Source: an uncultured Sphingobacteriales bacterium
GTDB lineage: Bacteria > Bacteroidota > Bacteroidia > Cytophagales > 172606-1
Length of the DNA stretch: 64,000 nt
Direction: 5' to 3'
NCBI GenBank assembly: GCA_963844325.1
Contig: CAWJNV010000002.1
Span: forward strand, 3,897,824 to 3,961,823
Below, piece after piece: positions 6,810-64,000 of this stretch. Under the pieces are notes generated by a model, which was given only the letters and a program-made list of their open reading frames with translations, searched no databases and had not been told where the DNA came from. Made by a program: the position numbers and the translations under genes. Positions within the stretch are counted from its first letter, which is position 1. Every line of letters starts with the position of its first letter.

Positions 6810-8021
6810 TCAACTCCGGAACCGGACCAGTGGAAAAGCCTGGCCCGCCGGGAACGTGTCCGTGCCCGCGTCCAGTTCCAGGAAGGCGTCGGCGTGGAGC
6901 AGGTTGGCAAAATCACCCGAGCCGCTGCCCGGCAGGGCTTTGGCGCACACGACGCCCTGCGCGTTCTGGTAGGTCCGTACGGGCACGAAGCAGGTGAGGG
7001 GCGGCGCAAAGCGGATCGTTTCGTCGAGTACGGCGCAGGCGGCCGGCAGGGGCGGCTGGCCGAGGACGGCCCGCAGCCAGGGCATCAGGTAGCGGTAGCA
7101 GCACAGGAACGTGGACACGGGGTTGCCCGGAAAGGCAAACACGGCCTTCCCCTCCGCCGACCGGCCGAACCAGAACGGCTTGCCCGGCCGCTGGGCTACT
7201 TTGTGAAAGAGCATTTCCACGCCCAGTTCGCCCAGCACTTCGGGCACGAAGTCCGACTTGCCCATCGATACGCCGCCGCTGAGCACCAGGCAGTCGTGGT
7301 CCGGCAGAAGGGCCTCCAGCGTGCGGCGGATGGCCGGCTTGTCGTCGGGCACGTGGAAGAGGGCCGGCGCCGCCGCGGCTTCCCGCAGGGCGGCGCCGAG
7401 CATGTGCGCATTGGAGCGCCGGATCTGGTGGGGCAGCGGGGACTGGTCTACTTCCACCAGTTCGTCGCCGGTAGAGACCACGGCTACCCGCAGCGGGCCC
7501 GAGACGGCCAGCGTGCCCCTGCCCACGGAAGCCGCCACGCCGATCTCGGCCGGGCCGAGCCGGGTACCCGCGGGAATCAGCAGGTCGCCCTGCCGCCCGT
7601 CGGTGCCGCGCCGGTGCACGTTGTGCCACGGTTTTTCGGGGAGCAGCCGGGGGGTGGCCCGCCGCCCGCCGGGTCCTTCGTCCAGTTGCAGGTCCTCGTA
7701 GCGGATCACCGTGTCGGCGCCTTCGGGCAGTACCGCCCCGGTCATGATCTCCAGGCACCCCTGCGGGTCGGTGAGGCGCCCCGGGGGCGTGCCCGCGTAG
7801 GCGGTGCCGGCCACCGGAAAGGTGCGTGGGCCGGCCTGCAGGGCGGCAAAAGCCACGGCAATGCCATCCATCGTGGCCCGGTGGAAGGGCGGAAAGTCAC
7901 GGTCGGCGTACACGGGTTCCCGGAGCACGCGGCCCACGGCTTCGGCCAGGCCAACCCGGGAGACCGGCGCCGCCCCCGCGTGCGACCCGATCAGGGCGGC
8001 CGCTTCCTGTACTGAAATCAT
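6810..8021 (-). CDS. moeA: Molybdopterin molybdotransferase MoeA
   Basis: 403 aa: MISVQEAAALI...FPPFHRATMDGIAV...the MoeA/gephyrin E-domain pattern. It lies within the Moco gene cluster. Confidence 0.85.
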   Translation of the reverse strand: MISVQEAAALIGSHAGAAPVSRVGLAEAVGRVLREPVYADRDFPPFHRATMDGIAVAFAALQAGPRTFPVAGTAYAGTPPGRLTDPQGCLEIMTGAVLPEGADTVIRYEDLQLDEGPGGRRATPRLLPEKPWHNVHRRGTDGRQGDLLIPAGTRLGPAEIGVAASVGRGTLAVSGPLRVAVVSTGDELVEVDQSPLPHQIRRSNAHMLGAALREAAAAPALFHVPDDKPAIRRTLEALLPDHDCLVLSGGVSMGKSDFVPEVLGELGVEMLFHKVAQRPGKPFWFGRSAEGKAVFAFPGNPVSTFLCCYRYLMPWLRAVLGQPPLPAACAVLDETIRFAPPLTCFVPVRTYQNAQGVVCAKALPGSGSGDFANLLHADAFLELDAGTDTFPAGQAFPLVRFRS

Positions 8022-8082
8022 AACGATGAATTTAACTTCTTACCTTTGCGGCTGCAAGGTACACTTTACGAACGGTCATTCT

Positions 8083-8574
8083 ATGGCGGAAGAAGGAGGC
8101 AACTTTACCCACCTCGATGCCGCGGGCAACCCGGCCATGGTGGATGTGGGCGACAAGCAGGTAACCCGGCGCACGGCCACGGCCCGCAGCCTGGTGGTGC
8201 TGCCCGAAGTGGTGCGGCAACAACTGTCGGGCGGGGAAATTCACACCAAAAAAGGCCCCGTGTTCGCGACGGCCATCGTGGCGGGCATCATGGGCGCCAA
8301 AAAGACGTCCGAACTCATTCCGCTCTGCCACCCGCTGGCCCTGGACAACTGCAAGATTACCATCGACCTGAACCCGGACGGCGAAGTGGAAATCCGGTGC
8401 ACGGCCCGCGTGACGGCCAAAACCGGCGTGGAGATGGAGGCCCTGACCGGCGCTACGGTGGCGGCCCTCACCATCTACGACATGTGCAAGGCGTTTTCGC
8501 AGGAAATCATCATCAAAGAAACCATGCTCATCGAAAAAACGGGAGGTAAAAGTGACTACCGCATCCAATCGTAA
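8083..8574 (+). CDS. moaC: Cyclic pyranopterin monophosphate synthase MoaC
   Basis: MAEEGGNFTHLDAAGNPAMVDVGDKQVTRRTA...LIPLCHPL...GVEMEALTGATVAALTIYDMCKA is the canonical MoaC. An alternative ATG at 8027 adds 19 aa. Confidence 0.85.
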   Translation: MAEEGGNFTHLDAAGNPAMVDVGDKQVTRRTATARSLVVLPEVVRQQLSGGEIHTKKGPVFATAIVAGIMGAKKTSELIPLCHPLALDNCKITIDLNPDGEVEIRCTARVTAKTGVEMEALTGATVAALTIYDMCKAFSQEIIIKETMLIEKTGGKSDYRIQS

Positions 8575-9730
8575 CGGGGGCCCCGACGCCCCTTCCCCCA
8601 AGCCCAAGCACGCCGCCCTGGCCCGGCCCGCCGGGGGGGAGTTCGGCCGCTTCGAACTGGCGGTCCTGGGTACGCCCTGCGACCGGATCAAACGGCTGGC
8701 CGCGGCCCTGATGGGGCACCTCCCGGCGCAACTGCGCGTGGCCTACGTGGACGCTGACCACAAGGGGGAGGAGGGGCCCGGCAACCCGTTCCTGCAGGCC
8801 GGCGCCACGCTGCACTACAACGACAAGATTGCCGCCAAACGCTTCGACTACCGCGGCGACCTCAACCCGTACCAGCTCAAGCCGTTTTTCGCCGGCCAGG
8901 ACCTGGTGCTGGTGAACGGCAACCACTTCGCGGCCCGCAGCCAGGTGGCGGTGGTGGACCCGGCCAAACCGCTCGAAAAGAAGCTCGACAAACTGACCGA
9001 CGTGCGGCTGGTGCTTCTGGCCGAAGGCGTTGCGGAGGTGCCGGCCTACCTGGCGGCCCACCTGCAACAGGCCGGTGAACTGCCCGTGCTGCGGTTGGAC
9101 GATACCGAAGGGATTGCCCGGCACATCCTCGCGCTTTGGCAGGCGCAGCTGCCCCCGTTGCACGGCCTCGTGCTGGCCGGCGGGCTGAGCACCCGGATGC
9201 AGCGGGACAAAGGTTTGCTCCACTACCACGGCCAGGCGCAGCGGGAATACGCCGCGGGCCTGCTGGCCCGGTACTGCCGCGAGGTGTACCTATCGTGCCG
9301 CCCCGACCAGGCCGCCGAGCCGGGAACCCGGTTCCCGCTCCTGCCCGACACGTTTACGGGCCTGGGGCCGCTCGGGGGCATCCTGTCGGCGCTGCGCCAC
9401 CAACCCGACGCCGCCTGGCTGGTGGTGGCCTGCGACTTGCCCCTGCTCGACGACGAGACGCTGCGCTTCCTGGTGACGCACCGCGACCCGTCCCGGGTAG
9501 CCACCGCCTTCCTCGATCCGGAAGGGAAATTTCCCGAACCCCTGGTAACGATCTACGAGCCCCGCAGCTACCCCGTGCTGTTGCAAATGCTGGGCCTGGG
9601 CTATTCCTGCCCCCGCAAAACCCTCATCAACCACGACGTAGCCCTCCTCCGCGCCCCCAATCCCCGCTCCCTCACCAACGTGAACGAACCGGGAGAGTAT
9701 GAGAAAATAGTCAGGGAGTTGGAAGGTTAG
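8552..9730 (+). CDS. mobA: Molybdenum cofactor guanylyltransferase MobA fused to an N-terminal MobB-like domain with degenerate P-loop
   Basis: The C-terminal half has GLVLAGGLSTRMQRDKGLL (the MobA nucleotidyltransferase G-loop). The N-terminal ~190 aa resembles MobB, but the Walker A is replaced by LGTPCDRIKRL. Confidence 0.65.
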   Translation: MTTASNRNGGPDAPSPKPKHAALARPAGGEFGRFELAVLGTPCDRIKRLAAALMGHLPAQLRVAYVDADHKGEEGPGNPFLQAGATLHYNDKIAAKRFDYRGDLNPYQLKPFFAGQDLVLVNGNHFAARSQVAVVDPAKPLEKKLDKLTDVRLVLLAEGVAEVPAYLAAHLQQAGELPVLRLDDTEGIARHILALWQAQLPPLHGLVLAGGLSTRMQRDKGLLHYHGQAQREYAAGLLARYCREVYLSCRPDQAAEPGTRFPLLPDTFTGLGPLGGILSALRHQPDAAWLVVACDLPLLDDETLRFLVTHRDPSRVATAFLDPEGKFPEPLVTIYEPRSYPVLLQMLGLGYSCPRKTLINHDVALLRAPNPRSLTNVNEPGEYEKIVRELEG

Positions 9731-13197: not shown

Positions 13198-13206
13198 CCA
13201 ATACGC

Positions 13207-13635
13207 ATGATCACGCACCACGACCTGGCTCCGCTGCGCTTGAAAGACTTCCTGCCCCAAACCGACCGGATCGAAGCAGTGGATGGCTGGGAATTCATGG
13301 ACAAGGTCTGGCTGGGCGAAGTGTACGGCTTTACCGAGTGGCTCCGGTTGCGGGAAGACCCGGAAGTGCTCCGTTCCGTTTCGCTGGACCTGGCGGACCT
13401 GGACCAGGAAACAGCCGACCGCATCCTGTCAACCTTGCAACTGCCGCTGGAATACGGAATGGAGCTGGAGGAGGTTAACGGAGTGCTGGGGGAGCCGTCC
13501 GGGCAGGTGCAGTTGGTGCCCAACCGGATCACCTACGAATATTTGGTTGGAAATCAGGAGAAATACTATATTTCTGCAACCATCGACCGGCTTGACGGCC
13601 TGGTGTACCTGGTGGCAATCGCCAAAGAGGAATAA
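13207..13635 (+). CDS. Hypothetical acidic protein
   Basis: 142-aa ORF starts 10 bp after the previous ORF. It has lower GC and no recognisable motifs. Confidence 0.35.
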   Translation: MITHHDLAPLRLKDFLPQTDRIEAVDGWEFMDKVWLGEVYGFTEWLRLREDPEVLRSVSLDLADLDQETADRILSTLQLPLEYGMELEEVNGVLGEPSGQVQLVPNRITYEYLVGNQEKYYISATIDRLDGLVYLVAIAKEE

Positions 13636-13645
13636 AAACAACCCA

Positions 13646-14140
13646 TTGAAAAACATCTTTACCCTGCTGTTGCTGCTCACGGTGGCCTACGACGGCGCCG
13701 GTCAGGCCGGCACGGAACCGGCCGACAAAGTGGTGGTGTACAAAAGCAAACGGCAGCTGCAACTGCTCCGCGCGGGCAAGGTACTGCGCACGTACCGCAT
13801 CGCCCTGGGGGACAACCCGAAGGGGCACAAACGGCAGGAGGGCGACGAAAAGACGCCCGAGGGCGCTTACGTGCTCGACTGGCGCAACCCCAACAGCCGC
13901 TACTACAAATCCATTCACATTTCCTACCCCAACGCGCAGGACCAGCAGCAGGCCCGGCGACGCGGCGTGTCACCCGGCGGCGACATCATGGTCCACGGTC
14001 GGAACGGGCCGACCGTACTGCCCGACGGTACCTGGAAATGGAAGGACTGGACCGATGGCTGCATTGCCGTTACGAACACCGAGATGGACGAAATCTGGAA
14101 GATGGTCAAAAACGGCACGCCCATCCACATCAATCCGTAG
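13646..14140 (+). CDS. L,D-transpeptidase (YkuD/ErfK family), secreted
   Basis: TTG start in frame: MKNIFTLLLLLTVAYDG (signal), then ...HISYPNAQD...VHG...DGCIAV. These are the catalytic His/Cys of YkuD-type L,D-transpeptidases. Confidence 0.65.
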   Translation: MKNIFTLLLLLTVAYDGAGQAGTEPADKVVVYKSKRQLQLLRAGKVLRTYRIALGDNPKGHKRQEGDEKTPEGAYVLDWRNPNSRYYKSIHISYPNAQDQQQARRRGVSPGGDIMVHGRNGPTVLPDGTWKWKDWTDGCIAVTNTEMDEIWKMVKNGTPIHINP

Positions 14141-19066: not shown

Positions 19067-19903
19067 ATGAACCAAAAGACACGTCGTAGTTTTTTGAAGC
19101 GTACCGTCGGCTCGGCGGCGGCGCTGGCGGGAACGGCCGTGGGAACGACCATTGAGGCAACCGCCGGGACTTCGGCAGGGAAGGCGCCGGTGCGGCTGCG
19201 GTTTGCGGTGGCTTCCGACGGACACTACGGACAGCCGGACACCGATTACGCCGGCTTTTACGGCAACATCGTCGTCTGGCTCAACCAGGAGAACGAACTG
19301 AACGGACTCGACTTCTGCGTGTTCAACGGCGACATCATCCACGACGGGCCCGAATTTCTGCCGCAGGCCAAGGCGGCCCTGGACGGGCTGAAAGTGCCGT
19401 ACTACGTCACCCGCGGCAACCACGACCGGGTATCGGCCGAAACCTGGCAGCAGACCTGGGGCTACCCGCCCGACCACAGCTTCGCCCGGGGCGACTACGC
19501 CTTCCTGCTGGGCAACACTTCCAACGAAAAAGGGGAATACCTGTGCGCCGACGTACGCTGGCTGAAGGAGACGCTCGAAAAGTACCGCCGGAAAACCCAC
19601 GTGTTCGTGTTCCTGCACATCACCCAGCGCAAGTGGACCGGCGCCGGCACCGAATGCCCCGAGGTGATGCAAACCCTGGCGGCCTACCCCAACGTGGCGG
19701 CCGTCTTCCACGGCCACGACCACGACGAACACGGCATCAAGACGGCCGACGGCAAGTCATACGTGTTCGACGGACACTTCGGCGGCAACTGGGGCGTGCC
19801 CTACAAAGGCTACCGCATCGTGGAAGTACCCGCCACCGGCAAGGTCAAAACCTACCAGTACAACCCGGAGGTGAATCCCATCGTCAATCTGAGCCAATTG
19901 TAA
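19067..19903 (+). CDS. Tat-secreted metallophosphoesterase (calcineurin-like)
   Basis: MNQKTRRSFLK (Tat signal); ASDGHYG, NGDIIHDG, TRGNHD and FHGHDHDEHG are the metallophosphatase motifs. Confidence 0.8.
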   Translation: MNQKTRRSFLKRTVGSAAALAGTAVGTTIEATAGTSAGKAPVRLRFAVASDGHYGQPDTDYAGFYGNIVVWLNQENELNGLDFCVFNGDIIHDGPEFLPQAKAALDGLKVPYYVTRGNHDRVSAETWQQTWGYPPDHSFARGDYAFLLGNTSNEKGEYLCADVRWLKETLEKYRRKTHVFVFLHITQRKWTGAGTECPEVMQTLAAYPNVAAVFHGHDHDEHGIKTADGKSYVFDGHFGGNWGVPYKGYRIVEVPATGKVKTYQYNPEVNPIVNLSQL

Positions 19904-20124
19904 TGGTTGAATGGCTGCATGGCTGCATGGCTATATGGCTATATGGCTATATGGTTGTTGATCGGGAAGGAGTCGTGCGCCAGCCCAACCATACAGCCAT
20001 TCAACCATACAGCCATATAACCATGCAGCCATATAACCATACAGCCATATAACCATACAGCCATATAACCATACAGCCATATAACCATACAGCCATATAA
20101 CCATACAGCCATATAACCATACAA
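19904..20124. repeat. Large 8-bp-word palindrome (CCATNNNN family) with unique core, between convergent genes
   Basis: Left arm ggttgaatggctgcatggctgcatggctatatgg...; core ttgttgatcgggaaggagtcgtgcgccagcccaacc. The right arm has about 17 units of ccatacag/ccatataa. The arm generates spurious ORFs MIVWLYGCMV.... Confidence 0.8.
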
Positions 20125-21238: not shown

Positions 21239-21325
21239 GGATCAGGATTCTCAGAATTAGAGGATGAACAGGATCAGATACCCACGTGGTGTTGTCGAGC
21301 AGTGATCCGGTAATGCCAGTCCCGC

Positions 21326-21410
21326 CACAAAGGCACGAAGACACCAGGGAACACGAAGGTTTGCCGGCCGCAGCCGCCTTTGTGTTCCCTGGTGTCTTCG
21401 TGTTTTTGTG
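21326..21410. terminator. Bidirectional Rho-independent terminator between pspA and the convergent dehydrogenase gene
   Basis: cacaaaggcacgaagacaccagggaacacgaagg / loop / cctttgtgttccctggtgtcttcgtg, followed by tttttg. The stem is about 26 bp with one mismatch. Confidence 0.65.
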
Positions 21411-21419
21411 ACGTATTCT

Positions 21420-24139: not shown

Positions 24140-24763
24140 ATGGGAGACGTACTCCTGAAACACAAACGCCTGCTGCTGCTCCTTGCCCTGTTGCCCGTCC
24201 TGCTGCCCGCCCGTGCGCAGGCCGTTTCCTTCGGCATCAAATTTTCGGGCCTCGCCATTCACCCCCGTCCGCAGCCCGTAGCCGGCCAGTACGGCGGCCG
24301 CCTCGACCGCAAGGGTTACGCAGTGATCACCCAGGGCCTGGCCCTCACCCTCGACGTGAACGTGTACCGTAACGTGGGCCTCAAGTTCATCCAGGCGCTG
24401 GTGTGGCGCGACTGCGCCAACAAGTTCGCCATGCTCAGCCACGTGGGCGTCAACTTCTTCGGGGCGGGCACCACGCTGGGCAAGGGTCGGCACGGGTTCA
24501 GCTGGAGCCTGGGACCGGTACTCTACCGGCGGCAATCGTGGAAGGACGTGCCGGGCTACGTGCCCGACGACAGTTGGCTCAAAGCTCCCGCTGGCAGCCG
24601 GTGGGAAACCAAGCTGGTGCTGCTGGGCGGCCAGCTGGAGTACAACTACTATTTCCGCGAGAATTACGGCCTGTCGCTCAACGTGTTGCCGGGCTACCCC
24701 GACGTGATCAGCGTGTCGGGCGGGGTGGGCAGAAGATCAGGATTAACAAGATTAAAGGATTAA
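24140..24763 (+). CDS. Hypothetical secreted/outer-membrane protein (possible PagL-like acyl hydrolase barrel); 3' end runs into repeat
   Basis: MGDVLLKHKRLLLLLALLPVLLPARAQA is the signal. Beta-strand-like alternation follows. The last 9 codons and the stop lie inside the ggattaa-word palindrome. Confidence 0.4.
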   Translation: MGDVLLKHKRLLLLLALLPVLLPARAQAVSFGIKFSGLAIHPRPQPVAGQYGGRLDRKGYAVITQGLALTLDVNVYRNVGLKFIQALVWRDCANKFAMLSHVGVNFFGAGTTLGKGRHGFSWSLGPVLYRRQSWKDVPGYVPDDSWLKAPAGSRWETKLVLLGGQLEYNYYFRENYGLSLNVLPGYPDVISVSGGVGRRSGLTRLKD

Positions 24764-24968
24764 CCGGATGGATCGGGATTAATCGGATTAAAGGATTAGC
24801 AGGATTACGACGACCGAAATCCTCTTAATCTTTTAATCCGGTTAATCCCAATCCTAATCCGGTTAATCTCAATCCGGTTAATCCCGATCCTAATCCGGTT
24901 AATCTCAATCCTAATCCGGTTAATCCCGATCCATCCGGTTAATCCTTTAATCTTGTTAATCCTGATCC
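24735..24968. repeat. 8-bp-word palindrome (ttaatcnn / nngattaa) spanning the 3' ends of two convergent genes
   Basis: gatcaggattaacaagattaaaggattaa (24736-24765) is the reverse complement of ttaatcctttaatcttgttaatcctgatc (24941-24965). Between them lie about 20 tandem 8-bp units (ccggttaatcccaatcctaat...). Confidence 0.8.
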
Positions 24969-30609: not shown

Positions 30610-30880
30610 TGAGTAGGATAGGGTTCGGGGAATAGGAATAGGGTTTGGATATGGGATAGGGTTAAAACCCTATCCTATGGATATTGGGGAGGAAGCTTGC
30701 TAGGTTGGTCATAGCTCAGGTAGGATAGCAGGATAGGGTTTAAACCCTATCCTGCCAATGGGCAAATTGAACCCGCGAACCCAATATCCATAGGATAGGG
30801 TTTTAACCCTATCCCATATCCAAACCCTATCCAAAAAAAACATCCCGCCAACGCTACTCGCCCCGAACCCTATTCCCCAA
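30610..30880. repeat. REP/BIME-like cluster (ggatagggtt-aaaccctatcc units) upstream of RAYT gene
   Basis: At least four units: gggatagggttaaaaccctatcctatgg, caggatagggtttaaaccctatcctg, ataggatagggttttaaccctatcc and others. The same spacer motif ggatattggg..gaagcttg occurs as in the downstream cluster. Confidence 0.8.
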
Positions 30881-42627: not shown

Positions 42628-42759
42628 GGCGTTGGCGGATTTAGGTGAAGGATAGAGTCAATATAAACATCTTTTTCCAAAACCTCCTCGGCCGCCCGCC
42701 TAAATCTTCGCCAACCCGCCTTGTGCCGATGGGACGAGTACGTAGGTGTACCGACAAAC

Positions 42760-42893
42760 GGTTGTATGGCTGAATGGCTGAATGGCTGAATGGTTATATG
42801 GCTAAATGGCTGTATGGTTGACCGGATAGGTCATAGACCATGTAACCATTTAGCCATTCAGCCATATAGCCATTCAGCCATACAACCATTTGC
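42760..42893. repeat. 8-bp-word palindrome (CCATNNNN family)
   Basis: ggttgtatggctgaatggctgaatggctgaatggttatatggctaaatggctgtatgg ... ccatttagccattcagccatatagccattcagccatacaacc. Confidence 0.75.
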
Positions 42894-45794: not shown

Positions 45795-46140
45795 CGGTAC
45801 ACGACCTCACCCCCAACCCCTCTCCCGGGGAGCTACGATTAGGACACTTTATCTTTTCATCAGGATGAGTACCTTAAAACGCTTTTGGTACCGTCAGGGA
45901 GACACGGGCGGGCGGCCTGCGGACCCTTAGCCGGGTTGATTCCGGGCCGTGGTCAGTTTCGGCTTCGCCGCCGTCAGGGTCTCACTGACGGCTTTTTTGC
46001 GCATTTCGAAGATGTGTCCCAAGCGTAGCTCCCGGGGAGAGGGGAGAAGAATGTGTTCTACAAATATTTGTACAACAGTCCGTTATATCTCCCCTCTCCA
46101 TTTGGAGAGGGGCCGGGGGTGAGGTCGTGTACCGTAGTAT
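45795..46140. repeat. Composite palindromic element of the cccctctcc/ggagagggg family, interrupted by a ~180-bp insert
   Basis: Left half ggtacacgacctcacccccaacccctctcccggggagct (45795-45833). The right part is a full nested palindrome agctcccggggagaggggag...loop...ctcccctctccatttggagaggggccgggggtgaggtcgtgtacc (46016-46140). The insert 45834-46015 ends with the hairpin gccgtcagggtctcactgacggc followed by tttttt. Confidence 0.7.
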
Positions 46141-48107: not shown

Positions 48108-48215
48108 TTCGAGTAGTGAGTATTGAGTATTGAGTACAGCGCTGCTCATGTAATCCGGGCAAGTTTAAATACGCGGTACTCAATACTCAATACTCACTAC
48201 TTAATACTAACTACC
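48108..48215. repeat. 8-bp-word palindrome (gagtattg / caatactc)
   Basis: gagtagtgagtattgagtattgagtac ... gtactcaatactcaatactcactacttaatactaactacc. Confidence 0.75.
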
Positions 48216-50955: not shown

Positions 50956-51088
50956 GGTTGAATGGCTATATGGCTGAATGGCTGAAAGTTGATTGTTGAA
51001 TGGCTATATGGTTGGGCTGGCGCACGACTCCTTCCCGATCAACAACCATTCAGCCATACAGCCATTCAACCATATAACCCTTTAGGTC
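50956..51088. repeat. 8-bp-word palindrome (CCATNNNN family) sharing the unique core of the 19904 element
   Basis: The core atggttgggctggcgcacgactccttcccgatcaacaaccat is the exact reverse complement of 19949-19990. Confidence 0.8.
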
Positions 51089-51564: not shown

Positions 51565-51698
51565 GGTACACTGACATTGGTACACTGATCGGTTAGGATG
51601 ATTATGATTTTTTATGATCTTTTTTTAGCATTCTTTTCTGATTCGTTTTAATCATAATTATCATAACCCATCAGTGTACCATCCATCCGTGTACAAAT
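51565..51698. repeat. 8-bp-word palindrome, second copy of the gattatga family seen at 33112
   Basis: ggtacactgacattggtacactgatcggttaggatgattatgatt ... aatcataattatcataacccatcagtgtaccatccatccgtgtac. Confidence 0.7.
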
Positions 51699-54153: not shown

Positions 54154-54554
54154 ACATCCTGCACATTGAAGACGACCCGCATTGCGTGGAACTCATGCAG
54201 CGGGCCATTGGGAAGCTGGGCCGGCCGCTGGATGTCCACGCGGTAACCGACGGGGAACTGGCGCTGAAGTTCCTGTCGGCGCGGGAGTGGCCGCCCCGGC
54301 TGATCGTGCTCGACCTGAAGATACCCAAGGTGAACGGCTTGCAGCTACTGGCGCAGTTGCGGGCGGAGGAGAAGACGCGCACCGTGCCCGTGATCGTGTT
54401 TTCCTCTTCGAAGGAGCCCCGCGACGTGGCCCTCTCGTACCAGGCCGGCGCCAACAGCTACGTGATCAAACCCCTCGAATACAAAGACTTCTTCGAAGCC
54501 GTCCAGCGCATCATCAACTACTGGCTCGGCGTCAACTACGCGGACGGGGGGTGA
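54141..54554 (+). CDS. Stand-alone response-regulator receiver protein
   Basis: ILHIEDDPHCVEL...LIVLDLKIPKVNG...ANSYVIKP. It overlaps the kinase gene by 13 bp. Confidence 0.8.
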   Translation: MHYVDILHIEDDPHCVELMQRAIGKLGRPLDVHAVTDGELALKFLSAREWPPRLIVLDLKIPKVNGLQLLAQLRAEEKTRTVPVIVFSSSKEPRDVALSYQAGANSYVIKPLEYKDFFEAVQRIINYWLGVNYADGG

Positions 54555-54722
54555 GGTTGAAAAGCTGTATGGTTGTATGGTTGTATGGTTAGATGGCTGA
54601 AGGGCCGGGGGGATAACTGGACCGGAGGGTTTTGTAGCCCTTCGGTTTTTATTTGCGGGGAAAAAATCAATTTTTGTACACCATACAACCATACAACCAT
54701 ACAACCATACAACCATACAACT
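54555..54722. repeat. 8-bp-word palindrome (ccatacaa x5 / ttgtatgg) with internal terminator-like stem
   Basis: ggttgaaaagctgtatggttgtatggttgtatggttagatgg ... ccatacaaccatacaaccatacaaccatacaaccatacaac. The core carries ccggagggttttgtagcccttcgg followed by ttttt. Confidence 0.75.
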
Positions 54723-54752
54723 TCCTAACCTCCCAACCCCTAACCTCCTCCT

Positions 54753-56289: not shown

Positions 56290-56688
56290 TTACTCCTTTC
56301 CCGCTCCCGGCTGGTGGTTGGCGTTGGAGGGGGAATTGCTGCTTTTGAGGCGCTTTACTTCTTCGCGGCATTCCTCCAGTTGTTCGATCTTCAGGTTCAT
56401 GTCCCGCATCAGGATCGAAATCTGTTCGTCCTTTGAGAGGTAGCGGGGCTCATTTTCATTGGCCCGGTTGTTGGAGTCGTGCCGCGACGCTTCGAGCCGC
56501 TCATCGAAAAAGTAGGTGATCGGCAGCCCCAGTACGTTGCAGATTTTCTGAAGCTGGCTCAGCTTGATGTCGTTGTTGGACAGTACGCTGCTCAGGTTTT
56601 GCTTACTCATCTCGATCTTCTTCGCCAGGTGCGTCAGGTTGATGCCCTTCGACTCAATGTATGCCTTGATCTTTTCGTTGACAGTCAT
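56290..56688 (-). CDS. XRE-family helix-turn-helix transcriptional regulator
   Basis: MTVNEKIKAYIESKGINLTHLAKKIEMSKQNLSSVLSNNDIKLSQLQKICNVLGL is a Cro/C1-type HTH. The region is low-GC. Confidence 0.7.
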   Translation of the reverse strand: MTVNEKIKAYIESKGINLTHLAKKIEMSKQNLSSVLSNNDIKLSQLQKICNVLGLPITYFFDERLEASRHDSNNRANENEPRYLSKDEQISILMRDMNLKIEQLEECREEVKRLKSSNSPSNANHQPGAGKE

Positions 56689-56818
56689 TTGTGTTTCAAT
56701 CGCTTATAATTCCGGTAAGAATAATGTTGAACAATAATTTGACTTTGGTAAAAACGATATTTAATATTATGGTTTCAAAAGAACAAATATACAACCTAGT
56801 ACAAACGACTGCAAAAGA

Positions 56819-57127
56819 ATGTTCATTAACTCCGGCAGGCAATCCATGATCAAGGCATCTCAGGCAGAAAAAATTCAGACAAAACACATCATTGAGCGCA
56901 TCACTGACCACATTCCGACGTCGGGATACGTACAAGCCGTACAGGCGGTACTCTCCAAGCGGGGCATCGTAAAGCCCGGCAGCGGCGAACCGTACGGACC
57001 CGAACAGATCCGCAACACGCGCAATTTGAGGGCGTACCATTTGCCGGTCGCCAGGATTTTTGAGGAACTCTATGACCCGGCCAACGGCCAGAAGCCGGCC
57101 GGGGAGCCGCCGCGGCAACCGTCGTGA
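56819..57127 (+). CDS. Hypothetical small protein divergent from the XRE regulator
   Basis: 102-aa ORF in the low-GC islet. No motif recognised. Confidence 0.3.
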   Translation: MFINSGRQSMIKASQAEKIQTKHIIERITDHIPTSGYVQAVQAVLSKRGIVKPGSGEPYGPEQIRNTRNLRAYHLPVARIFEELYDPANGQKPAGEPPRQPS

Positions 57128-57721
57128 CCCGCCGGGGCGGCCCCTGAAACTGGGGGCAACCGTCGTTAAAACGGCAAGGGCAGGGACCGGGCTTACCATC
57201 CCGTCGCCAAAAAAAGGGACTGTTTGGATTTAAAAATACGCCGGGCGTTCGTTTTTCCGAATCCGCTTAATGTGGGTTCTCCGTATGTAGGGCGTATTTA
57301 ACGAATCGGTCCGTGAGCCCCGGTCTTATGGGCTGGCGGTCAGCGGCTTGCTCCCTTGAATGCGTAACGCTGAGTGCGTAGCGGTGTTAACCGGCCGGTT
57401 TGCAACAAATTTTTGACCAGCCGGAGTCCCCGAAAGGATTTTTTCCCATGCGTAATTACAATTCCGTCAGTGGCCGCCCCCGGGCAGGCCCCTGCTTGTG
57501 CAACCTTAACTTAACTTCTCCCGATGATGCTGGCTGTTACCATCAACATGAGCATTCCTGAATACAATAGTATGAAGGAAGCCATTGGCCGTTTTTCGGA
57601 GCCCGTGCGTTACAAAGACGTGCTGGTCACGGACATGGCCGCCACGGTTACCCTCTACGTGTCGCGCCCCGCCGTCCTCTTCCAACTCGCCCTGACCATG
57701 GATAAGGTGAGGAGGAAGTAG

Positions 57722-57925
57722 GGAATGAAGGAGTTGGGGAGTTTAGGAGTTAGGGAGTTTGAGCGTTGGAGGGTTGGAGAAATTGAGCGTTGGGTAAATA
57801 CACATTCATAAAAACACCAGTGCGTAAAAGTGTGTCCAGAATTTCTCTTTTGCGCAGAAATTCCAACTCCCTTTCAACGCTCAAATTCCCTAACTCCATA
57901 ACTCCCAAACTCTCTAACTCCCTAC
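57722..57925. repeat. 8-bp-word palindrome (nnnttgga / tccaannn)
   Basis: gaatgaaggagttggggagtttaggagttagggagtttgagcgttggagggttggagaaattgagcgttggg ... ttccaactccctttcaacgctcaaattccctaactccataactcccaaactctctaactccc. Confidence 0.75.
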
Positions 57926-60608
57926 AGCCTCGGGTCGAGGGGTTCGCTTTCGAGGGCCAGGACGGCAAAGACGCATTCGTGCACGTGGCGGAGGGGCGCC
58001 CCGCCCACGAAGCGTTCGAGGGCTTCCAGGCCCAGGGCGAACTCGCGCAGGGCCAGCGACCGCTTGGCCCCCAGGCCCCGTTGCCGGAGCCGCTCCAGGT
58101 TGGCCGGGGCGTCGTATTCGGGGCCGTAGATGATGCGCAGGTATTCGGGGCCGCGGCACTTGACGGCCGGCTGCACGAGGCCCTTGCTCCCCCGGGTCAC
58201 GTAATCCAGGGGTTTTACCACCATGCCCTCGCCGCCCTTGCCGGTCAGGCCGAGCCACCACTCGATGGCAGCGGCCCGCTGGTCGTCGCGGGAGAGGTCT
58301 ACCACGCGGTAGGGCGTAGCCACCAGCCACTGCGGGTCGGCGGCGCAGACCTCGCGGATGCTGTCCAGGTGCCACCCGTGGTCCTTGTCGGCGTGCACGG
58401 CCCCTTCGGTCGCCAGGAGGTGGAAGGGCGCCAGGCGGTAGTCGTCCAGCGAATGCACCGGCCAGCAGTACCGCCGGTAGGCTTCCGTGAAACGCTCCGC
58501 CATCCCTTGCCGGGCCGCGTACGCATCGAGCAGCCCGTCTACGGCCAACCCCCGCGACCGGGCGGCGCTTGAGGGCGTCGAGCACGGCCGGCAGGGCGGC
58601 CCGGGAAGCGGCACCCACGGCGGCGTACTGGTTTTGCAGCAGTGCCTGCGCCTTGGCCGACCACGGCATCAGCTCGGTGTCGAGGCACACCCAGTCGGTG
58701 TTGAACTTTCTCCCAGAAGCCCGAACCGGTGAGGGCGGCGCGGACCCGTTCGAGGAAGGCGTTTTCCAGTGCCCCGTCGTTGAAGAAGGGGCGGCCGGTG
58801 CGGGTGTAGCACACGCCGGTTTCCCGCGCCGACCCGAACCGGCGCAGGGCCGCCGCTTCGTCGCGGCACACCACCACGACCGCCCGGGAACCCATGTGTT
58901 TTTCCTGGCATACCACCGTGCGCACGCCCACCGAGGCGTAGTGCGCCAGGGCTTCGGCCGGGTGTTCGAGGTAGCCCGGCAGCTTGCTGGTCTCCGACGG
59001 CGACATGGTGGGCGGCAGGTAGATCAGCCACTTGGGGTCCACGGCGAAGCGGCTCATCACCTCCAGGGCCGCCGACGCGTTTTCCGCCCGCACCGAGACG
59101 TTGTTGGCCAGCCGGGTGACCACGATGCGCTTGCCCAGCACCTCGTCGATGTCGAGCAACGCGTCGCTCTGCTGCTGCGCCGACGGGGCGTCGGCCCGTT
59201 CGTCGGGCTGGCGCAGGGGCCGCGCCGGTTCGTAGTACACCCGGCCGGCGGGCACGCTCACCAGTTCCCGCTCGGGATACCGCAGGGCCGTCAGTTCGCC
59301 CCCGAACACGCAGCCCGTGTCGATGTCGATGGTGTTGTTGAGCCATTCGGGCTCGGGTACCGGCGTGTGGCCGTACACCACCATTGCCTTGCCCCGGTAG
59401 TCGGCGGCCCAGTTGTAGCGGACGGGCAGGCCAAACTCGTCGGTCTCGCCGGTGGTTTCGCCGAAGAGGCAAACGACCGCACCGCCCCCGAGCCGCGGCC
59501 CTGCATTTCTTCTTTCAGCCCGGCGTGGGCCACCACCAGCCGGCCCCCGTCGAGCACGTAGTGGCTCACCAGCCCGTCGATGAATTGCCGTACTTGTGCC
59601 AGAAAAGCATCCGGCTCCCCGGCCAGTTGTTCCATCGTCTGGGCCAGGCCGTGCTTGATCTGCACGTTTTTGCCCCACAGTTTGCGCAGGAGCTTTATCG
59701 TCGTGGTTGCCGGGCACGCACAGGGCCGTGCCGGCGCGGACCATGCCCATCACCAGCCTGAGCACGGCCGGCGAGTCGGGTCCGCGGTCCACGAGGTCGC
59801 CCACGAACACGGCCGTGCGGCCCGGCGGGGGCACTACTTCGGTTTCGCCCGGAGCCCCGCCGGCCGGCCGTACTTCGTAGCCCAGCTTTTCGAGCAGCTG
59901 GGCCAGTTCGGCGTAGCAGCCGTGCACGTCGCCGATGATGTCGAAGGGGCCCGTGCGGTGGCGGAGGTTGTTGTAGAGGGGCTGCCGTTCGATGCCCGCC
60001 ACGGCGTCCACTTCTTCCGCGGAACGCAGCACGTGCACGTGGCGGAAGCCTTCCCGCTTGAGGTCGGGCAGGGAGCGGCGCAACTGGCTGCGGTGCTGGG
60101 CAATCACGTGGCGGCCGAAGTTGCGGTCGGGGCGGGCCTGGTTGCGGTCCTGGCACAGCCGTTCGGGCACGTCGAGCACAATGGCCACGGGCAGGCAGTG
60201 GAATTCGCGGGCCAGCTGCACGAGCGGCTTGCGGCTTTCGGGCTGCACGTTGGTGGCGTCCACGACGGTGAGCAGGCCGCGTTTGAGCCGCTTGCGGACG
60301 ATGAAGTGCAGCAGTTCGAAGGCGTCGCCGCTGGCGGACTGGTTGTTTTCGTCGTCCGACACCACGCCGCGGCAGGCGTCCGACGACACGATTTCGGTGG
60401 GCTTGAAGTGCCGGCGGGCAAACGTCGATTTACCCGAACCGGACGCCCCGATCAGCACCACCAGCGACAATTCGGGAATTTGTAGGGTCATATTGGTTTT
60501 GTTTAAGGAGTGAGAAGCGAGGAGCGAGAAGTGAGGAGTGAAAAGGCGGAGCACGAACTTGTACTGGGCTAACGGGTAAAGTACGTCTCCATTCTTCTCG
60601 CTTCTCAC
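57922..60608 (-). pseudogene. pnkp: Polynucleotide kinase-phosphatase/ligase Pnkp (RNA repair), disrupted by at least four frameshifts
   Basis: N-terminal kinase MTLQIPELSLVVLIGASGSGKSTFARRHF; phosphatase FDIIGDVHGCYAEL...ALCVPGNHDDK; C-terminal ligase-like region. The reading frame switches near 59697, 59480, 58700 and 58590; tracks 58539..60608, 59291..59665, 57914..58690 and 57922..58614 each carry part of the protein. Confidence 0.75.
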
Positions 60609-62026
60609 TCCTCGCTTCTCGCTCCTTTTTCAAACACTGCCATTTGCGACGGGGCGCCGGCATCGGGCGATTCGGGGCCGACGGGGTGGAAGCGGACCGA
60701 GTAGCCGTAGGTGCCGGCGATCTGGCCGCCCCAGGCTTCGAACTCGGCGCGGGTCCACTCGAACCGGTGGTCGGCGTGGCGGAAGGCGCCGGCCGACAGG
60801 GATTCGTAGAGCCGGTTGTACTCGGCGTTGGGCGTAGTGACCACCACTGTGCCCGGCCGGGCGTGGCCGAACACCACCCCTCCGAAGGCTTCCAGCCGTC
60901 CCGGGTCAAGGTGTTCGATCACTTCCACCACCGCCGCCGCGTCGTAGCCCATCAGGCGCTTGTCGCGGTACACCACCGACCCCTGCATGAGCGTAATGCG
61001 TTGCCGTTCGCGTTCGGGCAGGCGGTCGAAGTTGAGCTTGTCGCGGGCCATCTCCAGGGAGCGGGGCGACACGTCCATGCCCAGGATCGTTTGGAACTGT
61101 TTTTCGCGGAGCAACAGCCGCAGCAGTTTCCCTTCGCCGCAGCCCAGGTCGAGCACCCGGGTGGCGCCCGAGGCTTTGAGTTGTTCGAAGGCCGACTCCA
61201 GGCGCAACAGGTGCAGCGACTGCCGTTGGGCAACCACTTCGGCGGGTACCTCGTCGGGGTCGTCGGCTTCCGGGTCGCCGGCCTCCAGCAGCGAGAAGGC
61301 CTGCCGGGTGAGGGCGCCCAGGTTTTTGAGGTAGCGCCGCGTGATCTGTTCCCGTTCCGGGTGCGTTTGCAGCCAGCCTTCCCCCTTTGCCAGCAGCTTT
61401 TCCACCTCGTGTTCGCCGATCCAGTAGTGCTTGTCGTTGTCGAGCACCGGGATGAGCACGTAGAGGTGGGCCAGCAGGTCGCGGAGGCGCCGCCGCCCGG
61501 AGAGGGTCACCGTGAAGTAGCGGCTCGGGCCCCAGTCGGGAAACGTTTCGTCGAGCGGGTAGCCCTGCGCGTCTACGGCGTAGCCCAGCGGCTCGAACAG
61601 GCGCCGCAGCAGCCCTTCGCCGCCCCGTACGGGCAGCACCGACAGCGTCACCGTGAAGGGCAAGGGCGTGTCCACCAGTTCGGGCCGGTCCTTGCAGGTG
61701 CCGTTCATGGCCGTGGCAAAAGCTTTGGCGAGGGCCACTGCCAGGAACGACGAGGCCACGTACGGCCGGTCGTTGACGTAGTGTTCGAGGGCGAAGTTGT
61801 CGCCGGCGGGGCCTTTGGCGTTGCGCACCAGCCCGACCGGGTCAATGTCGAGCAGCAGGGCCACCGTGCAGCGTTCCGCGGAGGCTTCCGGGTAGAAAAT
61901 GTGCGCCTGGCCCGCCGAAAGCTCCACCGACTGCACCCTTGCCGGGTTCTTGTGCAGCAGGTAGCCCAGGTCGGTGGCGGGGGTATGGGTAGTAGTGATG
62001 GTGAGGAGCATGGGGTAAAGGGTCAA
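60605..62026 (-). CDS. hen1: Hen1 3'-terminal RNA ribose 2'-O-methyltransferase (bacterial Pnkp partner)
   Basis: 473 aa. The C-terminal MTase has RVLDLGCGEGKLL (SAM motif I) and VVEVIEHLDP. An N-terminal Hen1-specific domain is present. The 4-bp start/stop overlap with pnkp is typical of the pnkp-hen1 operon. Confidence 0.8.
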   Translation of the reverse strand: MTLYPMLLTITTTHTPATDLGYLLHKNPARVQSVELSAGQAHIFYPEASAERCTVALLLDIDPVGLVRNAKGPAGDNFALEHYVNDRPYVASSFLAVALAKAFATAMNGTCKDRPELVDTPLPFTVTLSVLPVRGGEGLLRRLFEPLGYAVDAQGYPLDETFPDWGPSRYFTVTLSGRRRLRDLLAHLYVLIPVLDNDKHYWIGEHEVEKLLAKGEGWLQTHPEREQITRRYLKNLGALTRQAFSLLEAGDPEADDPDEVPAEVVAQRQSLHLLRLESAFEQLKASGATRVLDLGCGEGKLLRLLLREKQFQTILGMDVSPRSLEMARDKLNFDRLPERERQRITLMQGSVVYRDKRLMGYDAAAVVEVIEHLDPGRLEAFGGVVFGHARPGTVVVTTPNAEYNRLYESLSAGAFRHADHRFEWTRAEFEAWGGQIAGTYGYSVRFHPVGPESPDAGAPSQMAVFEKGARSEE

Positions 62027-62135
62027 TAGTCATTGGTACATTGGTCATTGGTTGATTGGTCACGGGTCAATAGTCATCCGGATGCGTTGACTTACGCGTA
62101 CCCAATGACTAATGCACCAATGACCAATGACCGTC
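62027..62135. repeat. 8-bp-word palindrome (gtcattgg / ccaatgac)
   Basis: gggtcaatagtcattggtacattggtcattggttgattggtcac ... gtacccaatgactaatgcaccaatgaccaatgacc. Confidence 0.75.
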
Positions 62136-62930
62136 CTAATTGAGCAGCAACTGCCGGCCTTCGGTTTCGCCGGGGGAATGGGTGATCAGGTTGAGGATCA
62201 TTTCGCGGTAGCCGGCGATGGGCAGTTCCACCTCGCGGTGCAAGGTACGGCGCAGCACCTGGGTTTCGGTGTTGCGCACCGGGTCGAAGCCTTTGCGCTG
62301 GGCCATCTTCCAGTAGAAGCCCATGCCCCGTTTCTGCCAGGCGGGCAGGTCGTTGTAGTTGATGCCCAGGCTGAAGAGCAGTTCGTTCTTTTCGCTCACC
62401 GACAGCTTGTAGATGCGTTCCGAGGCTTCGCGCAGCGAGAGGCCCCGTTCGCGGAGCTTCCAGTAGCAGTAGGCGCTCAGGGCATTGCGGTTGGCGTCTT
62501 CGGCCCGCCAGCTGAAGTAGTCGGCCACCACCTTTTCGGTGGGCAGCACCGACAGCCGGGCGTCGAAGGCGCCGATGTGGCCCAGGGCGTGCGTAAAGGC
62601 GGCGCTGGCTTCACCGGCCAGGACTGAGAGCAGCTTGCGGTGCAGGCGGTTGAACGAGGCGTCGTCGCGGTGGAAGAGCAGGGAGATTTCGTCGCTCTGC
62701 GTGTAGCCGTAGGTGAAGTTGAAGCCGCTCTGCATGAGGTGTTCGGTGGCGGCACTCATGGCTTCGCGGAACCGGAAGTCGAAAGGTTTTTCCAGGTACA
62801 GGGTTTCTTTGGTCAGCTTGGTAAAGCCCCGGCCGTCGAGGCGGGCCACGATGTAAAACCCGGGCGGTACCGACTGGTCGGCGGCCGTTTCGTAGAGCCG
62901 CATCTTCTCGTCCAGTTGCGAAAATTTCAT
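62136..62930 (-). CDS. Thg1-like protein (tRNA-His guanylyltransferase family, 3'-5' nucleotidyltransferase)
   Basis: MKFSQLDEKMRLYETAADQSVPPGFYIVARLDGRGFTKLTKE...YGYTQSDEISLLF has the Thg1 N-terminal catalytic Asp/Glu pattern. The upstream in-frame extension to 63200 is non-protein-like. Confidence 0.75.
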   Translation of the reverse strand: MKFSQLDEKMRLYETAADQSVPPGFYIVARLDGRGFTKLTKETLYLEKPFDFRFREAMSAATEHLMQSGFNFTYGYTQSDEISLLFHRDDASFNRLHRKLLSVLAGEASAAFTHALGHIGAFDARLSVLPTEKVVADYFSWRAEDANRNALSAYCYWKLRERGLSLREASERIYKLSVSEKNELLFSLGINYNDLPAWQKRGMGFYWKMAQRKGFDPVRNTETQVLRRTLHREVELPIAGYREMILNLITHSPGETEGRQLLLN

Positions 62931-63438
62931 ATAGCTAGTATTTTGAGTCAGTTGAGACATGGGTTGAGGACATGGGTTGGTACAAGTACCGGAAACAGGC
63001 ATTACGGGCAGCCACAGCAAGGGCAACCCGGCAAGCAGGGTCGGGCGGACGGGCCATTGGGGTCCTTTTCGCCCTTTTTGCCACCAAGACACTACGGCAC
63101 GAAGGAGCACCAGGAGAAACCCCTGCGCGTACCGGCACCACAAGCCGGGTGCGGCCGGAACAGCGGTCAGACAAACTCCCGGGGCGGCGGATGATTGCAT
63201 AAATAATCTTTAGGAATCTTCAGGAAAAACGGGCAACAGCGTGCCGGGCAAAAACACATAACGGACGAAATGCCGGATACGGGATAGCCGGTCCGGAGAA
63301 AGTATTTTACTGCTTTGGTTTAGAAGTCGGTTTCACGAAAAAGAGGGTTTCACGAAAAAGTGGGTTTCACGCAAAGACGCAAAGGAAGACCGCAAAGGGC
63401 GCAAAGAAGGAGCCCTAACTGCCGCATTCTCTTTCTTG

Positions 63439-63742
63439 CGTCGCAAAGGGCCGCGTCGCGGGAAAGGGTCGCGTCGCGGCTCCCCTCCTCGGAGGGGTTA
63501 GGGGGTGGGTTTACCTCCATGCGACGAGCTATATAGGGATCACCGCATTGCGTTGATCTCCCTCACACCACTGCTAAACTTTCTGCGAATTCTCCCTTCT
63601 GCGGAATTCCCATTGTGGTGATCCCCAGATCACGCGGGGCATGGAAGTAAACCCACCCCCTAACCCCTCCGAGGAGGGGAGCCGCGACGCGACCCTTTCC
63701 CGCGACGCGACCCTTTCCCGCCATGCGGCCCTTTTGCGACGC
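63439..63742. repeat. Large inverted repeat (~75-bp arms, ~130-bp centre), MITE-like
   Basis: gcgtcgcaaagggccgcgtcgcgggaaagggtcgcgtcgcggctcccctcctcggaggggttagggggtgggtttac is the reverse complement of gtaaacccaccccctaacccctccgaggaggggagccgcgacgcgaccctttcccgcgacgcgaccctttcccgcc...gcgacgc. Confidence 0.75.
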
Positions 63743-63755
63743 AAGGAAAAGTAGC

Positions 63756-63906
63756 GTGCTATACTAAGGTGCAAGACCTCACCCCCGGCCCCTCTCCCAA
63801 GGAGAGGGGAGAATAACCTGTTTTATAATAACCTGTTTGACAAATATTTATGTCTCCCCTCTCCTTGGGAGAGGGGCCGGGGGTGAGGTCTTGCACCTTA
63901 GTATGG
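63756..63906. repeat. Nested palindrome of the cccctctcc/ggagagggg family (intact copy of the 45795-46140 element)
   Basis: tatactaaggtgcaagacctcacccccggcccctctccc aaggagaggggaga ...loop... tctcccctctcc ttgggagaggggccgggggtgaggtcttgcaccttagtat. Confidence 0.75.
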
Positions 63907-64000
63907 TGCCGTGCCCATATGACGCTTTGTTACTTTGGTCTTCTTCACTTTGTGCCCTTTTCCGCGTCAGCCTCCTTCCCGATCCTCCTCCGGTCTGCCG

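Follow-up and report, generated by a model that had tools for sequence, protein, structure and literature searches.

What is a gene for a 3'-5' RNA polymerase doing beside a cassette that heals and seals broken RNA? In a 64,000-nt stretch of the genome of an uncultured Sphingobacteriales bacterium (hereafter the window, whose numbering all unprefixed coordinates follow), the gene for a Thg1-like protein (TLP) lies upstream of hen1 and pnkp, the two genes of the bacterial Pnkp-Hen1 RNA-repair system. Pnkp heals 2',3'-cyclic-phosphate and 5'-OH ends and then seals them, and Hen1 methylates the junction 2'-OH and activates the ligase (PMC3675462, PMC4411300). TLPs extend the 5'-monophosphate ends of truncated tRNAs, in a templated manner, after activation with ATP; such template-dependent 3'-5' addition to 5'-truncated tRNA has been observed in vitro for the Bacillus, Myxococcus, and Methanosarcina enzymes (PMC3061083, PMC4820378). 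A 2019 review says of bacterial and archaeal TLPs that their biological substrates "remain to be identified" (PMC6471195). We consider it reasonably probable that the cluster described here is a Pnkp-Hen1 RNA-repair cassette that acquired a Thg1-like 3'-5' polymerase rebuilding RNA 5' ends.

A preliminary description of the locus had placed the TLP gene, hen1, and pnkp on the minus strand at the positions listed in Table 1. Pfam, NCBIfam, and PDB matches agree with it for all three genes, and the three family assignments hold in profile searches, including that of the TLP, on which the description had made its interpretation depend. The TLP product matches the Pfam families Thg1 (PF04446; 3.7e-30, profile positions 2-126/130) and Thg1C (PF14413; 1.8e-14). 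Its closest PDB match is 5AXK, the Thg1-like protein of Methanosarcina acetivorans (1e-30, 110 bits); eukaryotic enzymes score 81 and 78 bits, and the Bacillus TLP only 76. The palm-domain carboxylates D32, D80, and E81 do not vary across the 12 sequences of alignment A1, and they line up with the DGR and SDE motifs in the solved structures of Thg1 and TLP enzymes. The eukaryotic HINNLYN motif reads NRNALSA in the window TLP; because the longer motif DCHINNLYN of the Candida and human enzymes is replaced by EDANRNALSAYCYW, the protein is a TLP and not a bona fide tRNA-His guanylyltransferase. Every homologue begins at MKF (MKFSQLDEKMR), which sets the start at 62930 and the length at 264 aa. 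The frame remains open for 90 codons further upstream, to 63200 (62931-63200), and one public annotation (P0002) adopts the resulting 353-aa long form; other TLPs have nothing homologous to the extension, which is probably untranslated. The hen1 product matches Hen1_L (1.5e-115, profile positions 1-241/242) plus methyltransferase domains, and the NCBIfam equivalog TIGR04074 over its full length (713 bits against a cut-off of 340, positions 1-462/462); its indels relative to the homologues in related genomes are all of 3n length. The third gene, pnkp, follows hen1 in the same orientation (hen1 stop at 60605, pnkp start at 60491) and contains the Pfam domains AAA_33, Metallophos, and PNKP_ligase, with its homology split over three reading frames.

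The linkage recurs in other genomes and is no accident of this locus. We surveyed it from both sides: from the TLP side, by tblastn for Hen1 and Pnkp within 10 kb of the TLP gene in 80 genome loci and two contigs (82 in total), and from the Pnkp side, in 80 metagenome loci, 57 of which have hen1 adjacent to and co-oriented with pnkp (L-numbers below denote relatives and surveyed loci). Hen1 and Pnkp occur no more than 10 kb from TLP in 8 of the 82 TLP loci, compared to a chance expectation of fewer than 0.4 loci even if every 5-Mb genome contained one hen1-pnkp operon. The adjacency is therefore far beyond chance. The gene-neighbourhood survey that the preliminary description had proposed thus recovers the linkage in unrelated phyla, namely Bacteroidota, Cyanobacteria, Bacillota, and Planctomycetota.

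Two gene orders are found among the linked loci. TLP precedes the cassette in the Cytophagales loci L001 and L003 (TLP-hen1-pnkp) and in L078, a Bacillota metagenome-assembled genome (MAG) with the order kinase-TLP-hen1-pnkp. The order hen1-kinase-TLP-pnkp is found in L011, from an uncultured bacterium, in L077, from the cyanobacterium Dendronalium, with extra sequence between hen1 and the kinase, and in L079, a Pirellulales MAG with four extra genes in that position; in L042, from Dawidia, the genes are 6 kb apart. From the Pnkp side, a small kinase and TLP are inserted between hen1 and pnkp in 4 of the 57 Hen1-Pnkp metagenome loci, and the kinase alone in one. Overall, kinase and TLP stand between hen1 and pnkp in seven loci, fitting tightly in L011, L112, and L113 and accompanied by extra sequence or genes in L077, L079, L124, and L130. 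The linked members are scattered across both the TLP tree and the Pnkp tree, which indicates that the linkage was gained or lost repeatedly and did not arise from a single accident. Genes downstream of TLP are otherwise heterogeneous; no RNA-related ones besides pnkp and hen1 recur among them. Closer to the window, TLP adjoins hen1 in every close relative in which the region is covered (L003, L163, L164, L167, and L001); the preliminary description would have fallen had the two genes never been adjacent in related genomes. A metagenome locus (L122:5112-9530) has hen1, a small polynucleotide kinase, and pnkp with no TLP in between, and may be a remnant of a kinase-TLP insertion.

Two further kinds of genes recur near TLP. 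In at least 62 of 81 loci, TLP is directly preceded by a kinase of approximately 148 aa (AAA_33) whose gene overlaps the start of TLP. This kinase is absent in the window, L003, L001, and L164; in the window, no kinase ORF or homology was found at 62931-64000, and the two-gene module of a kinase of about 150 aa and Thg1 is thus missing there. The second is RlaP, which extends the 3'-OH of damaged RNA by one or two nucleotides and makes over-damaged tRNA functional again (PMC12776372). RlaP pairs are found near TLP in 10 of the 82 loci, including 5 of the 8 linked to Hen1/Pnkp, and also in the close relative L164. Synteny between the window and its nearest relatives, L164/L165 and L163, extends from a histidine kinase gene through TLP, and these relatives have two RlaP genes upstream of TLP; the window contains no RlaP up to coordinate 64000, where it ends, its last segment (62931-64000) being non-coding and palindromic. 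The Pirellulales locus (L079:5155-13371) is an eight-gene array encoding, in order, Hen1, a NIF-type phosphatase, RlaP, an R2K-clade ATP-grasp protein, a second RlaP, a small polynucleotide kinase, TLP, and Pnkp.

The gene content suggests how these enzymes might cooperate and in what order. A ribonuclease toxin would cleave a tRNA, after which the Pnkp phosphatase would take off the 2',3'-cyclic phosphate and the Pnkp kinase would phosphorylate the 5'-OH. Where nucleotides had been lost on the 5' side of a base-paired end, in the acceptor or another stem, TLP would re-add them, templated, from the 5'-phosphate, and RlaP would do the equivalent job at 3' ends. Hen1 would then 2'-O-methylate the 3'-terminal ribose, and the Pnkp ligase would seal the break, leaving a methylated junction predicted to resist re-cleavage. 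The Pnkp kinase domain may also substitute for the 148-aa kinase that normally precedes TLP: since it would supply the 5'-phosphate, the clade of the window could dispense with the small kinase, which would explain its absence. Tentatively, and with more doubt than conviction, we extend this model to propose that a subset of Pnkp-Hen1 systems employs TLP, often with RlaP, as a dedicated accessory enzyme that rebuilds losses on the 5' side of toxin-inflicted RNA breaks before methylation and sealing. If true, bacterial Thg1-like proteins would be anti-ribotoxin repair enzymes, the physiological role that has long been sought for them, with the Pnkp kinase domain having replaced the usual small kinase in this clade. 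The linkage of TLP in multiple phyla to the best-understood bacterial RNA-repair machine, together with RlaP, makes this a concrete, testable hypothesis on the role of TLP, and a choice of intact clusters exists for testing it. It also suggests that, in addition to resealing clean cuts, certain repair cassettes can replace lost nucleotides on both sides of a break.

The window itself is not one of these intact clusters. The preliminary description had called the cluster a complete anti-ribotoxin toolkit, which does not hold for the DNA as sequenced, and pnkp is not a single open reading frame. DNA alignment with L003, L166, L165, and L163 revealed four single-base indels in pnkp, all unique to the window and found in none of these relatives: an extra T near 59697 (frameshift 1), a T lost near 59473, shortening a run from T4 to T3 (frameshift 2), an extra A near 58711 (frameshift 3), and an extra C near 58567 (frameshift 4). 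The relatives encode an uninterrupted Pnkp of 853-855 aa. Read from its ATG at 60491, the window pnkp stops at 58539 with the kinase domain intact. Residues 265-339 are out of frame, and this 75-residue stretch replaces a segment with a VVAHAGL motif, which we take to be a phosphatase metal ligand by analogy with the Clostridium enzyme. The N-terminus of the ligase, with its EKHMGS lysine motif, is retained, and approximately 260 C-terminal ligase residues are lost. A working phosphatase or ligase therefore cannot be made from pnkp as sequenced. All domains remain recognisable, spread over a gene split by the four frameshifts and not joined in a single polypeptide; corrected at the four sites, the protein matches TIGR04075 with 1455 bits over positions 1-851/851. 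The window pnkp is a family member by descent and not an intact gene as sequenced, and, given the frameshifts, it is doubtful that this allele supports the healing, methylation, and sealing of ribotoxin-cleaved tRNA.

We think it fairly likely that pnkp is a young pseudogene and not the product of a local assembly error. Over approximately 12 kb of synteny with L165 and L164, these four are the only frame-breaking indels inside genes; none was found in the histidine kinase, response regulator, M20 peptidase, or HTH gene, hen1, or TLP. In the comparison of the window with L003, dN/dS lies at 0.13-0.25 for TLP, hen1, and each segment of pnkp, the shifted one being translated in the correct frame; purifying selection therefore acted on pnkp until very recently. 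Most likely, the cassette in the window underwent inactivation recently, and TLP, hen1, and the kinase domain are as yet undamaged. The alternative that the four indels are assembly or sequencing errors, that the organism's pnkp is intact, and that the cluster is fully functional seems to us credible but somewhat improbable. It would fit the low dN/dS of all pnkp segments, which matches that of TLP and hen1, the lack of in-frame stops or larger deletions in pnkp, the mutual compensation of frameshifts 1 and 2, and the run-length change at one site; pnkp also lies in the most G+C-rich part of the window (0.70), and the related metagenome contig L163 is visibly error-ridden. However, the frame breaks in the syntenic region are restricted to pnkp, three of the four indels are insertions outside homopolymer runs, and hen1 and pnkp are also frameshifted in an independent relative, L001. 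This more distant relative, whose TLP is 71% identical to that of the window, has a split RlaP gene, a hen1 that changes frame twice, and a pnkp that does so once, with TLP and the flanking genes intact (L001:6831-12849; GCA_030448035.1); in it, the Hen1/Pnkp part of the cluster has decayed a second time, independently. Together, the damage to pnkp in the window and to hen1 and pnkp in L001 illustrates how fast conflict-related cassettes decay. No near-identical pnkp copy, that is, none above 74% identity, was found in the metagenome scan; a protein search returned intact Pnkp relatives at 90-95% identity, none of which shares or resolves the frameshifts. Additional frameshifts suspected elsewhere in the window, at 7801-9727 and 13198-14137, were rejected, as these regions contain intact MoaC, MobA-like, and YkuD genes.

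Table 1. Coordinates of the RNA-repair cluster and of the intergenic hairpins in the window.
Feature	Coordinates	Strand	Description
TLP gene (Thg1-like protein)	62136-62930	minus	264 aa, intact; Pfam Thg1 and Thg1C
TLP-hen1 intergenic hairpin	62021-62132	minus	GGTCATT-type words; inverted repeat I7 and RNA fold
hen1	60605-62011	minus	Pfam Hen1_L; TIGR04074 equivalog, full length
hen1-pnkp hairpin	60498-60634	minus	GAGAAGCGAG-type words; inverted repeats I5, I8, I9; overlaps final hen1 codons
pnkp	57922-60491	minus	Kinase, phosphatase, and ligase domains; four 1-nt indels; homology in three frames
pnkp out-of-frame stretch	59473-59697	minus	Frameshift 1 to frameshift 2
pnkp ligase-domain frameshifts	58567-58711	minus	Frameshifts 3 and 4
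Large hairpin at pnkp 3' end	57712-57931	minus	GGGAGTT-type words; inverted repeats I2, I4; overlaps pnkp stop codon
Region upstream of TLP	62931-64000		Non-coding, full of long palindromes
Other intergenic hairpins	19903-20048, 21323-21413, 24735-24967, 30638-30830, 42755-42892, 45817-46044, 48112-48201, 50956-51071, 51578-51681, 54546-54739, 63445-63716, 63761-63904		

Long hairpins lie between the three genes. The palindrome made of repeated words that the preliminary description had noticed between TLP and hen1 is real, with 31-nt arms and an RNA fold of -52.3 kcal/mol (z = -6.3), but it is not special to the cluster. Similar structures separate hen1 and pnkp (-63 kcal/mol, z = -9.0) and follow pnkp (-46 kcal/mol, z = -5.1). 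All three are long and imperfect, with tandem words of 7-10 nt and the reverse complements of these words as building blocks, and the window holds at least 15 such intergenic hairpins of several word families (Table 1). The hairpins are a genome-wide class and not specific to the RNA-repair cluster; they are reminiscent of the cyanobacterial STRR heptamer repeats. Within the close clade, the TLP-hen1 spacer always has a hairpin, and its words differ between genomes: GGTCATT in the window, GTCGTAA in L003 and L164, GGTAAGT in L163, and GAGTTCAT in L167. The words are entirely different from those of the window, also in L167 with its 98% identical TLP. The architecture of the hairpin is conserved and its sequence is hypervariable. 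In L001 and the Bacillota locus L078, the spacers are short and unstructured. No U-tract follows the hairpins of the cluster. A sigma-70 scan yielded no promoter, and terminator-like sites were fewer than in shuffled sequence; likewise, the cluster lacks an exact Bacteroidetes -7 motif, and neither inter-gene spacer has a promoter-like motif. Near-matches to the -7 motif within the cluster are found only upstream of TLP, at 63387, 63256, and 63205. Co-transcription of TLP, hen1, and pnkp is plausible.

Several observations weigh against a cooperation of TLP with Pnkp and Hen1. Strong hairpins (z of -6 to -9) stand between the genes, and the same kind is found at other gene boundaries, which makes co-transcription uncertain. 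TLP is intact beside a broken pnkp in the window and beside broken hen1, pnkp, and RlaP in L001; this persistence of TLP beyond pnkp or hen1 in two genomes suggests that it is retained for a separate function. Some 90% of TLP genes have neither hen1 nor pnkp nearby, and TLP therefore does not need them. The known chemistry of TLPs requires a template strand, and a break in an anticodon loop offers none. Finally, the tie of TLP to Pnkp or Hen1 is a genomic one.

One interpretation of these observations is that TLP is a mere neighbor, with its own function in general tRNA 5'-end quality control or the upkeep of G-1 on tRNA-His, and that it lies beside hen1-pnkp because RNA-repair and defence genes tend to share islands and move together. 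We regard this as unlikely. The absence of Hen1/Pnkp neighbors from most TLP loci and the survival of TLP where pnkp or hen1 decays are consistent with it, as are hairpins that would insulate the genes and the presence of TLP beside a BREX system on a plasmid and of TLP homologues in 161 phage records; in contrast, the placement of a small kinase-TLP pair inside the hen1-pnkp cassette in seven loci, three of them tightly packed, and the recurrence of this arrangement at separate positions in the Pnkp tree are hard to explain without selection for co-expression. Alternatively, TLP could serve ligation instead of end rebuilding, its first half-reaction adenylylating the 5'-phosphate to give App-RNA, as a pre-activated end for the Pnkp ligase or a bypass of ligase adenylylation, which is very improbable: Thg1/TLP enzymes do activate 5'-monophosphate RNA with ATP (PMC6471195), and ligation through a 5' App-intermediate has been raised as a possibility (Anantharaman et al.; PMC2904730), but a lysine-adenylylation motif (EKHMGS) is already part of the Pnkp ligase, all three polymerase carboxylates of TLP are conserved, and co-occurrence with the end-extending RlaP fits nucleotide restoration better.

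As a Pnkp-Hen1 cassette joined by a TLP, the cluster can be compared with several known systems. It shares with the Pnkp-Hen1 system of Clostridium thermocellum and Anabaena variabilis (Shuman/Huang; PMC3675462) a hen1 gene directly upstream of pnkp on one strand, a Hen1 with the N-terminal Pnkp-binding (ligase-activating) and methyltransferase domains in a full-length equivalog match, and a Pnkp with kinase, binuclear metallophosphoesterase, and ligase modules that, once corrected, is also a full-length equivalog match. It differs in the upstream TLP (with two RlaP genes in relatives), the frameshifted pnkp, and the long hairpins between genes. Linkage of bacterial Thg1 genes to a polynucleotide kinase, and sometimes an RNA ligase, was described in 2010 and predicted to reflect RNA repair (Anantharaman, Iyer, Aravind; PMC2904730), and the Thg1-kinase RNA-repair idea was restated for jumbo phages in a 2021 paper. 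Like that PNK-Thg1 module, which accounts for the kinase-TLP pairs counted above, the cluster ties a Thg1-family gene to polynucleotide 5'-kinase activity; unlike it, the cluster has no stand-alone kinase of 148 aa, and its sole nearby kinase is the N-terminal domain of Pnkp. The RtcB-RlaP-RtcA and other ligase-RlaP operons (Burroughs and Aravind 2016, as cited; PMC12776372) likewise combine an RNA-ligase cassette with a nucleotidyltransferase that restores lost nucleotides before sealing. In those operons RlaP extends the 3'-OH, whereas TLP would work on the 5' end, restoring it 3'-5' with a template, and the ligase here is of the Pnkp type and not RtcB. The Pnkp1-Rnl-Hen1 complex of Capnocytophaga gingivalis, also from the Bacteroidota, is another remodelled version of the canonical two-gene Hen1 cassette, but it has a separate Rnl ligase and no TLP, while the ligase here is fused in Pnkp in the classical style (PMC4411300).

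The preliminary description had called the three-way linkage not commonly described, and in the literature searched we found no paper joining Thg1, Hen1, and Pnkp, although a prior description in Burroughs and Aravind (2016) is possible. Matches to Thg1 with Hen1 and to Thg1 with Pnkp were irrelevant or reference-list entries only, and Hen1 is not mentioned in PMC2904730 or its supplement. The general idea of Thg1 and a kinase in RNA repair was already published in 2010; the linkage to Hen1 and Pnkp is the added part. A linkage of TLP, Hen1, and Pnkp is unsurprising in principle, yet it provides a useful, testable lead on the question of bacterial TLP function.

The 3' end of pnkp converges with a plus-strand ORF of 65 aa. 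The segment downstream of pnkp (56290-57721) has a lower G+C content (0.53), is conserved and syntenic in the closest relatives only, and contains an XRE-type HTH gene (56290-56688, minus strand) and plus-strand ORFs of 102 and 65 aa. The two small ORFs have no family match. We excluded these three genes from the cluster on the basis of synteny limited to the closest clade and the lack of informative matches. No tRNA genes or Rfam families were found anywhere in the window, and assignment to a catalogued defence system was rejected, as PADLOC gave generic methyltransferase and HTH similarity only.

Other observations were made in the surveyed loci. In the closest intact relatives, a 161-aa ORF absent from the window lies between hen1 and pnkp (L164:7422-7907 and L165:1172-1657); it has no Pfam, NCBIfam, or PADLOC match, and could be an extra cassette component or an insertion. 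In three TLP loci, the ORF in the position usually taken by the small kinase matches PemK/MazF-type endoribonuclease toxins (upstream-neighbor set, L001-L082), a possible direct link between TLP and ribotoxins. On the 417-kb plasmid pTs417 of Candidatus Thiodictyon syntrophicum (L168; NZ_CP020371.1:318705-320463), TLP overlaps the nucleotidyltransferase gene that follows it, and a BREX-2 system is located a few kb away.

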